A DNA stretch of 64,000 nt from assembly GCF_058153355.1 (NCBI RefSeq), contig NZ_CM177019.1; one strand, written 5' to 3'. The position numbers were made by a program, and so were the translations under genes. Every line of letters begins with the position of its first letter. Position 1 is the stretch's first letter. Below, piece by piece: positions 32,954 through 33,370 of this stretch. Under the pieces are notes generated by a model. That model saw only the letters and a program-made list of their open reading frames with translations, was not told the DNA's origin and did no database searches.

Positions 32954-33370
32954 ATACCCGTCATACTTCAAGTTGCATATGCGTTGGCAAGTTATTCAGG
33001 GATAGCCGGATGAGTGACATCACCATCCGGCTTAAGATTCCATACTCTAAATAATTCGAGTTGCAGGACAAAACGCCAGTGGCGTTTTGAACAACTCTTG
33101 CGTTGACCCTGAAAGGGTGAGGCCTAAGGCCGAGTAACGCGACAGGCGAGTGACAAATTCGTCGGGAACGAATTTGACCAGCCTCTGGCTGGCCTTCGGT
33201 GAAAGGCATCCTGCCTTTCAGTCATCCCCAGTCACTTACTGGGGTGAGCGACAAATCCGCATGGAGCGGATTTGAACGCTGCTTGCAGCGGTCCCGTAAG
33301 GGGTGAGGCCCATGGATGGGCCGAATAACTCGCAGACGCAGCACATGCAACTTGAAGTATGATGGGTATA
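32954..33370. repeat. ERIC/IRU-like MITE with ~30-bp terminal inverted repeats
   Basis: Ends atacccgtcatacttcaagttgcatatgcg and gcacatgcaacttgaagtatgatgggtata are inverted repeats; internal cacttactggggtgagcg resembles the ERIC core; several internal palindromes. Confidence 0.6.

Follow-up and report, generated by a model that had tools for sequence, protein, structure and literature searches.

The locus just downstream of mnmH in the stretch of DNA analysed here (64,000 nt of contig NZ_CM177019.1, assembly GCF_058153355.1; hereafter the window) raises the question of whether an ERIC, canonically a 127-bp enterobacterial repeat, has been expanded into one unit of about 417 bp. The initial annotation had described the locus in this way, as a single ERIC-like element with 30-bp terminal inverted repeats, and had proposed either nested insertions or a longer MITE variant to account for its size. 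Aligned with the ERIC consensus, the region showed clear similarity, and the ERIC-type ends and core were recognised as annotated. The terminal sequences (TACTCTAAATAATTCGAGTTGCAGGA ... GCACATGCAACTTGAAGTATGACGAGTA) agreed with the canonical ones at 26/26 positions on the left and 26/28 on the right. The central inverted repeat (CCCCAGGAGCTTACATAAGTAAGTGACTGGGGTGAGCG) was found as ATCCCCAG...CTGGGGTGAGCGA at 33224–33251, and the right 141 nt (33230–33370) matched the right half of the E. coli yeiS-preT ERIC at 93.6% identity (features in Table 1).

Table 1. Features of the locus and of the adjoining island (positions in the window).
Feature	Position	Strand	Remarks
mnmH (tRNA 2-selenouridine synthase)	31824..32918	+	ORF; RefSeq annotation of matching E. 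coli DNA; Rhodanese domain
ERIC#1 remnant, inverted	32953..32997	−	TA and 36-nt right end, then about 9 nt (GAATAAC...) like the tail of a site-3 module
Hairpin spacer	32998..33041	.	Stem AGCCGGATG/CATCCGGCT at 33004–33032; REP/PU-like stem ends
ERIC#2 (= IRU/RU-1/MITEEc1), complete, 326 bp, TAC...GTA	33043..33368	+	End matches; alignment by eye to 123-bp ERICs; paired fuzzy ends
Module i1, site 1 (GCAGGA/.../ACGCGAC)	33069..33136	+	Four hairpins, 5'-CAAA...GAGTA-3'
Module i2, site 2 (GCGAGTGA/.../ATCCCC)	33154..33223	+	Divergent subtype: GACC linker, UUCG-type third hairpin
ERIC core, shortened and symmetrical	33224..33251	+	CCCCAGTcacttACTGGGG and TGAGCGA against canonical CCCCAGGAGCTTACATAAGTAAGTGACTGGGG; compared with loci L007, L009 and L010
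Module i3, site 3 (GGTGAGCGA/.../ACTCGCAGACGC)	33252..33327	+	82.7 bits with covariance model R1
IS630-family IS, terminal ~140 bp	33371..33508	+	Abuts the TA flanking ERIC#2; truncated inward
DDE transposase fragment	37710–38063		Within the island
vgrG	39845–42283	−	Within the island
Group II intron RT/maturase/HNH gene	44054–45796		Within the island

The window is E. coli DNA: complete E. coli genomes, in which the genes bear these names, match the segment allR-allA-allS-mnmH (29225–32918) with up to 98.8% identity. The region starts 35 nt past the stop codon of mnmH (32918), and GC content falls from 0.52 to 0.31–0.37 from about 33400, so its position between mnmH and an AT-rich island was correctly annotated. 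Homology with 5,400 E. coli genomes ends at about 32920–32926, i.e. 2–8 nt past the mnmH stop. In alignment with strain R32_14_1F, whose backbone is the closest one without the island, homology ends at 32920 and resumes at 46332; a 13.4-kb variable segment (32921–46331, mnmH to ybbP) replaces 664 bp of that strain (locus L132, 6196–6859) comprising a terminator and a dinQ-like toxin gene. The repeat region is thus the left, outermost edge of a 13.4-kb vgrG island. A Pfam search of the ORFs of the AT-rich island adjoining the repeat gave no matches.

We examined the inverted repeat between the two edges of the region. Positions 32953–32982 pair with 33341–33370 at 28/30 (93% complementary) across a gap of 358 nt, and by our own estimate the chance of such a 28/30 repeat within 900 nt is about 1 × 10−9. 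The repeat as annotated is therefore real, but its arms are not the two ends of one element. Both are of the ERIC right-end type: they agree with each other at 26/28 positions, with the canonical right end at 26/28 and with the left end at 17–18/28. The canonical ERIC ends (TACTCTAAATAATTCGAGTTGCA... and ...TGCAACTTGAAGTATGACGAGTA) are 19/28 alike when one is inverted. A perfect left end, identical to that of an E. coli ERIC at 26/26 positions, stands inside the region at 33043–33068. Because both arms are right ends and the left end is internal, the 417 or 418 bp are not one ERIC unit, and the only full ERIC with its own left end is that beginning at 33043.

We consider it probable that the region is a composite of two ERIC copies, namely a complete ERIC carrying three inserted modules (ERIC#2) and, to its left, a hairpin spacer of 44 nt and another ERIC's right end in inverted orientation (ERIC#1). 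The right arm of the 30-nt repeat is the right end of ERIC#2 and the left arm is that of ERIC#1. The repeats appear to be terminal because the right end of this second, truncated ERIC stands inverted to the left of ERIC#2. The remnant of ERIC#1 (32953–32988) is 97% identical to ERIC right ends in Pectobacterium, Serratia and Enterobacter; its GAATAAC tail is the sole hint of a former module there. ERIC#2 is preceded by CA and followed by TA. Since the left flank is CA rather than TA, there is no clean-transposition signature for the entry of ERIC#2 into ERIC#1, and since the remainder of ERIC#1 is absent, this history is a reconstruction rather than an observation.

Could the region nevertheless be a single 418-bp MITE variant, with the 30-bp inverted repeats as its true ends and movable by an IS630-type transposase? 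The arms match each other at 28/30, which is better than normal ERIC ends (19/28), TA is present outside both arms, and the end of an IS630-family element with ERIC-like termini directly adjoins. However, TA flanks come with any ERIC end and do not discriminate, the complete left end at 33043–33068 is internal where a single element should have none, and the left arm is ERIC for only 36–45 nt before unrelated sequence begins. Such an element would also be expected at several loci. The whole 418-bp unit was found in 3 of 5,426 E. coli genomes, each time downstream of mnmH (identity 98.8–99.3%), with no second copy in the window. The search for other copies that the initial annotation had called for did recover ERICs and modules at other E. 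coli loci, but the complete unit at this locus only. No further ERIC was found in the 64-kb window. We regard a single long MITE as very improbable: its left arm is a separate, truncated and inverted ERIC, with an unrelated 44-nt hairpin between the two copies. Among the 5,426 E. coli genomes, of which 3 carry the unit and all of these at one place, there is no sign that the composite moves as a unit, and we infer that it is a relic without mobility.

The adjoining IS630-family fragment, inserted at the TA beside ERIC#2, matches the end of a 1,096-bp element of E. coli A39 that has TA on both flanks; identity is 85.9% over the fragment and complete over its first 28 nt. The fragment shares 15–18 of 28 terminal positions with ERIC ends, compared with a maximum of 16/28 in 20,000 random comparisons. 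The presence of IS630-like termini beside an ERIC fits the known relationship between the two. ERIC is listed in ISfinder as MITEEc1, and ERIC-like MITEs of Photorhabdus resemble IS630-type ends (PMC6267812). The status of ERIC as a MITE, its link with IS630 and its effects on mRNA stability have all been described (PMC2229807, PMC6267812).

In contrast to the unit of about 127 bp, ERIC#2 is 326 bp long. We set the boundaries of its inserts by alignment with 123-bp ERICs from ybhJ-ybhI, cusF-cusC and pgk-fbaA. The excess length is explained by inserted modules of 68, 70 and 76 nt, minus a deletion in the loop: the central loop (CCCCAGTcacttACTGGGG) is 13 nt shorter than the canonical one and has become symmetrical, with a core hairpin of −11.3 kcal/mol. 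The three inserts (i1, i2 and i3) are co-oriented with ERIC#2 and lie at sites after GCAGGA, GAGTGA and GAGCGA. Nested insertion, one of the two causes originally proposed, is therefore borne out: three inserts from the same module family occupy defined sites within the ERIC, and several additional internal palindromic segments were found as annotated. Mechanistically, three copies of a module of about 70 nt would have become nested in a 123-bp ERIC body at fixed, unpaired spots of the ERIC hairpin.

ERIC#2 shares with the canonical ERIC its ends, a resemblance of its termini to those of IS630-family elements, the core inverted repeat, the TA on the right, an intergenic position behind a gene and a long hairpin fold. 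It differs in length (326 bp against 123 + 4 bp), in the loop shortened by 13 nt, in the CA on its left flank and in the inverted solo end alongside. The RNA folding that had been suggested as a check gave −211.7 kcal/mol for the 418 nt (z = −14.3) and −148 kcal/mol for ERIC#2 alone (z = −7.5). Wilson and Sharp reportedly described, in 2006, ERIC insertions of about 70 bp at specific internal sites. ERICs bearing inserts are already known and accepted as a longer variant; ERIC#2 belongs to this known kind, although its form, with three filled sites beside the remnant of a second ERIC, is rare. Judging from the titles of Sharp 1997, “Insertions within ERIC sequences”, and of Cromie, Collins and Leach 1997, insertions in ERICs have been in the literature since 1997 (both in PMC3696847). 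The insert-bearing ERICs cited in PMC3696847 have in common with ERIC#2, as far as that paper's citations go, internal inserts that keep the RNA foldable; in ERIC#2 all three sites are occupied.

Among the loci examined, ERIC lengths of about 123, 190–200, 265 and 326–337 bp corresponded to 0, 1, 2 and 3 modules, respectively, in a sample that was picked for modules and partly taken without a scan by the covariance model, so that the proportions of the classes carry no meaning. At these loci, 60 of the 61 modules were co-oriented with their ERIC. The modules started at fixed places within the ERIC, at 26, at 43 or about 110, and at about 152 or about 210–220. A second triple-insert ERIC of about 337 bp was found in Pectobacterium zantedeschiae (locus L122, 9135–9471), with the same three sites filled and a full-length central loop. 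Single-insert ERICs of E. coli lie between yeiS and preT and between panC and rpnC. A module of the i3 type was present in 648 of 5,426 E. coli genomes, usually once, and i3 itself is 97.5% identical to the module in the yeiS-preT ERIC. The i2 type was found in 615 of the 5,426 genomes at 84% identity, for example as the insert of the panC-rpnC ERIC downstream of panC in O157:H7.

Three alleles at yeiS-preT in E. coli separate the arrival of the ERIC from that of the module. One allele is empty with a single TA (L134), another holds a 123-bp ERIC with the TA duplicated (L133), and the last holds the ERIC plus a 78-nt site-3 module (L002). Because their flanks are about 99% identical, the gain or loss of both ERIC and module occurred within E. 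coli. At ERIC sites 2 and 3, and in the T-loop of a tRNA-Lys, the sequence left once the module is taken out equals the empty one to the base; GA precedes the module and A usually follows it. Two extra bases are left at the 3' junction of the yeiS-preT site-3 allele, and at ERIC site 1 the base adjoining the module differs from that of the empty ERIC. Between waaO and rfaJ in E. coli (L003, 1505–1630) there is a 126-bp element with ERIC ends and without the ERIC core. In its interior, a site-1 module's 5' half runs directly into the 3' tail belonging to a site-3 module, which looks like the outcome of a deletion between the two.

These observations bear on the possibility that the three-module ERIC of about 330 bp is the ancestral form, from which ERICs of 127 bp and of intermediate size would derive through module deletion. 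In its favour, Escherichia, Serratia and Pectobacterium have modules at the same three sites, ERICs with all three modules were seen in two genera, and the waaO-rfaJ element resembles the product of a deletion between modules 1 and 3. However, hosts with no relation to ERIC carry the module too (YPAL-like repeats, and T-loop-like sequence of tRNA-Lys/Ser/Arg and tmRNA). The filled state reduces to the empty one without a scar in the T-loop of tRNA-Lys and at sites 2 and 3 of ERICs, with a two-base remainder at yeiS-preT. Furthermore, i1, i2 and i3 are mutual paralogues, which fits repeated insertion. Ancestry of the long form is thus improbable in our judgement, and we interpret the modules as separate insertions.

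We next characterised the module family. The three copies share the architecture CAAA-hairpin-UUUGAAC (or GACC)-hairpin-CCC(loop)GGG-GAG-hairpin-GAGUA, and each folds alone into this hairpin series (z = −3.3 for i1, −4.5 for i2 and −3.6 for i3). A pattern scan of species-representative genomes yielded at least 120 loci, with 114 copies kept after filtering, among the matches listed. A covariance model (R1) was built from 38 diverse module copies. With filters off, R1 matched the 64-kb window at exactly three places, each on the plus strand. One was i2, which was absent from the seed (31.8 bits, E = 6 × 10−5); i1 scored 60.2 bits. Four hairpins, covarying stems and the linkers UUUGAAC and GAG..GAGUA, which define the family, were found for i1–i3.

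Over the 95 sources searched, R1 gave 138 matches, of which 134 were distinct. In these matches 96% of pair cells were standard (shuffles, 74.5%), double-sided changes were seen in 704 cells (shuffles, 188), and the covariation score was 0.545, compared with 0.02–0.06 when the partners were slid. Such strong covariation means that the hairpins are conserved as structure. G-U pairs outnumbered A-C pairs 109:42, but the ratio became 51:38 after one doubtful pair was removed. The conserved hairpins could form as RNA or as single-stranded DNA; the covariation fits both alike and cannot distinguish between them.

Read on the module strand, hairpins 1 and 4 mostly carry NGGA in their loops (77/138 and 82/138, respectively). 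Examples in the window (CAGGGAUG) are found at 33163–33167, 33261–33265 and 33311–33314, and they are reminiscent of CsrA/RsmA binding hairpins. GGA loops are absent from site-1 modules and from the copies of Pasteurellaceae; i1 has GGA in neither loop, and in i2 the fourth hairpin reads UCC instead. The paired GGA-loop hairpins could be candidate sites for a protein of the CsrA/RsmA type. No link between CsrA and ERIC was found in a literature search.

The closest entry in Rfam is RF02902 (AaHKsRNA22, Aggregatibacter sRNA 22), with which the modules share hairpin order and linkers (ACAAA-hairpin-UUUGAAC-hairpin-CCCC..GGGG-GAG-hairpin-GAGUA). Two of the copies in the window match it, i1 with 31.4 bits (E = 3 × 10−4) and i3 with 25.5 bits, under the gathering score of 39.8. 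Pasteurellaceae copies from our pattern scan reach 67–80 bits; they are without GGA loops and lie outside ERICs. Judged by these scores, the module family is a distant relative of RF02902 and not a member by Rfam's rule. The Aggregatibacter sRNA paper contains nothing on sRNA22. Two other identifications were rejected: RU-3 of Delihas is a REP/BIME sequence, and BoxC is reported in 22–32 copies, compared with 0–3 modules per E. coli genome. Among other Rfam matches, PhotoRC-I and mir-72 were at chance level, and isrH (20.6 and 13.2 bits) fell merely on the ERIC ends, at 32957–33001 (−) and 33321–33364 (+), below threshold. The positions of these isrH matches suggest that the Salmonella isrH model may include part of an ERIC.

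Within ERICs, the module was met in many Enterobacterales; it is also found outside ERICs. YPAL or RU-2 (Rfam Ysr224) of Yersinia and Pectobacterium is a structured intergenic repeat that likewise hosts the module (GCGCCAGGGA/module/..GCGCGG); its own sequence is unrelated to ERIC, and it is absent from the window. In the YPAL-like repeats of Pectobacterium the module lies in the loop of the central hairpin. In Pectobacterium betavasculorum (L061, 6668–6850) the 107-nt Ysr224 model matches a 183-nt YPAL-like repeat, the match being this long because a module is inserted in the central hairpin loop. About ten module-bearing YPAL-like copies were noticed in the loci of this species.

Marine and other Gammaproteobacteria carry the module within T-loop-like sequence, as GGTTCGA/module/ATCC (L079, L082, L084, L113, L012 and L017). 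These tRNA-like units stand in tandem with intact tRNA-Lys, tRNA-Ser or tRNA-Arg genes, or near tmRNA genes; coordinates noted for such tRNA- and tmRNA-like hosts are 6330–7260 and 10780–11200 of L079. One tRNA-Lys copy of Aliiglaciecola, intact over 58 nt, has a module inserted in the T-loop, and a normal tRNA-Lys gene comes after it. Elsewhere in this genus, units continue to the 3' end of a full tRNA, CCA included, and a D-loop resembling that of tRNA-Ser holds one module. Module copies were also found in a Desulfovibrionales genome.

Tentatively, then, the module may be a small, independently spreading structured element of four hairpins that enters the unpaired loops of sequences with structure of their own (ERICs, YPAL, tRNA-like sequences and tmRNA-like 3' ends), precisely behind a GA, always the same way round and with the target left unduplicated. 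It would spread by transposition of single-stranded DNA or by a process at the level of RNA. Elements of the IS200/IS605 type insert precisely 3' of a short motif, make no target duplication, keep a fixed orientation and have hairpins near both ends. By analogy, the insertion pattern of the module, which has these same traits and targets in unpaired loops, resembles single-strand transposition of this kind. However, no transposase is linked with the module, its first hairpin begins at the very first base, and its apparent target GA is shorter than the known targets of 4–5 nt.

The spacer between the two ERIC copies folds at −22.6 kcal/mol (z = −6.3). Among the loci compared by BLAST, matches to it (32998–33041) were found only in two island-bearing E. 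coli loci (L001 and L005). The canonical REP/PU (BIME) sequence GCCGGATGCGGCG..CGCCTTATCCGGCCTAC was not found in it. Compared by eye with the REP sequence of RU-3, the spacer has in common only GCCGGATG / ATCCGGC, and the interior is unrelated. This orphan hairpin of 44 nt thus has REP-like stem ends (GCCGGATG/CATCCGGC) and was seen only in genomes with the vgrG island. Neither the spacer nor the left remnant is a fourth module, as R1 with filters off gave no match there on either strand.

The palindromes could also be functional signals of the island, such as an attachment site or a bidirectional terminator, instead of repeat debris. They are located exactly at the island edge, the genes on either side are convergent, and the predicted stability is extreme. 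Against this, all pieces except the 44-nt spacer can be assigned to an ERIC, a module or an IS fragment, the opposite island edge showed no direct repeat of the region (nor did the window hold a further ERIC), and there is no T-run terminator. A role of this kind is quite improbable, and we maintain that the palindromes are those of a composite of repeats.

The composite is intergenic, folds strongly and faces convergent, minus-strand genes of the island. A scan of the region found no promoter-like site. No terminator-like site was found between mnmH and the repeat, the single match (33502–33514) being outside the repeat. Because the composite lies 35 nt past mnmH with no predicted terminator between them and faces minus-strand genes, it is probably transcribed as a 3' untranslated region by reading of the mnmH transcript into it. 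Its RNA would then fold into a very stable, multi-branched structure and could act as a barrier or a stability determinant. For Yersinia, such a role of ERIC RNA is reported in work that a review summarises (PMC2229807). By this analogy, the present-day effect of the composite is most likely that of a structured 3' untranslated element influencing transcript ends or stability.

The 418-bp stretch should accordingly be annotated not as a new long MITE but as an ERIC remnant, a spacer, a 326-bp ERIC with three modules and an IS630-family fragment. What it contains is an ERIC with every insertion site loaded, a rare case within a known family of repeats, together with the remains of another ERIC. 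A unit length of about 127 bp is assumed in ERIC-PCR and in repeat catalogues, whereas copies of 195, 265 and 330 bp form a regular series by module number. Rfam lists the module only as an Aggregatibacter “sRNA”. If the module is an autonomous insertion agent or a protein-binding RNA unit, the long-noted insertions in ERICs would be explained, and there would be a testable handle on how small structured repeats come to nest in each other.
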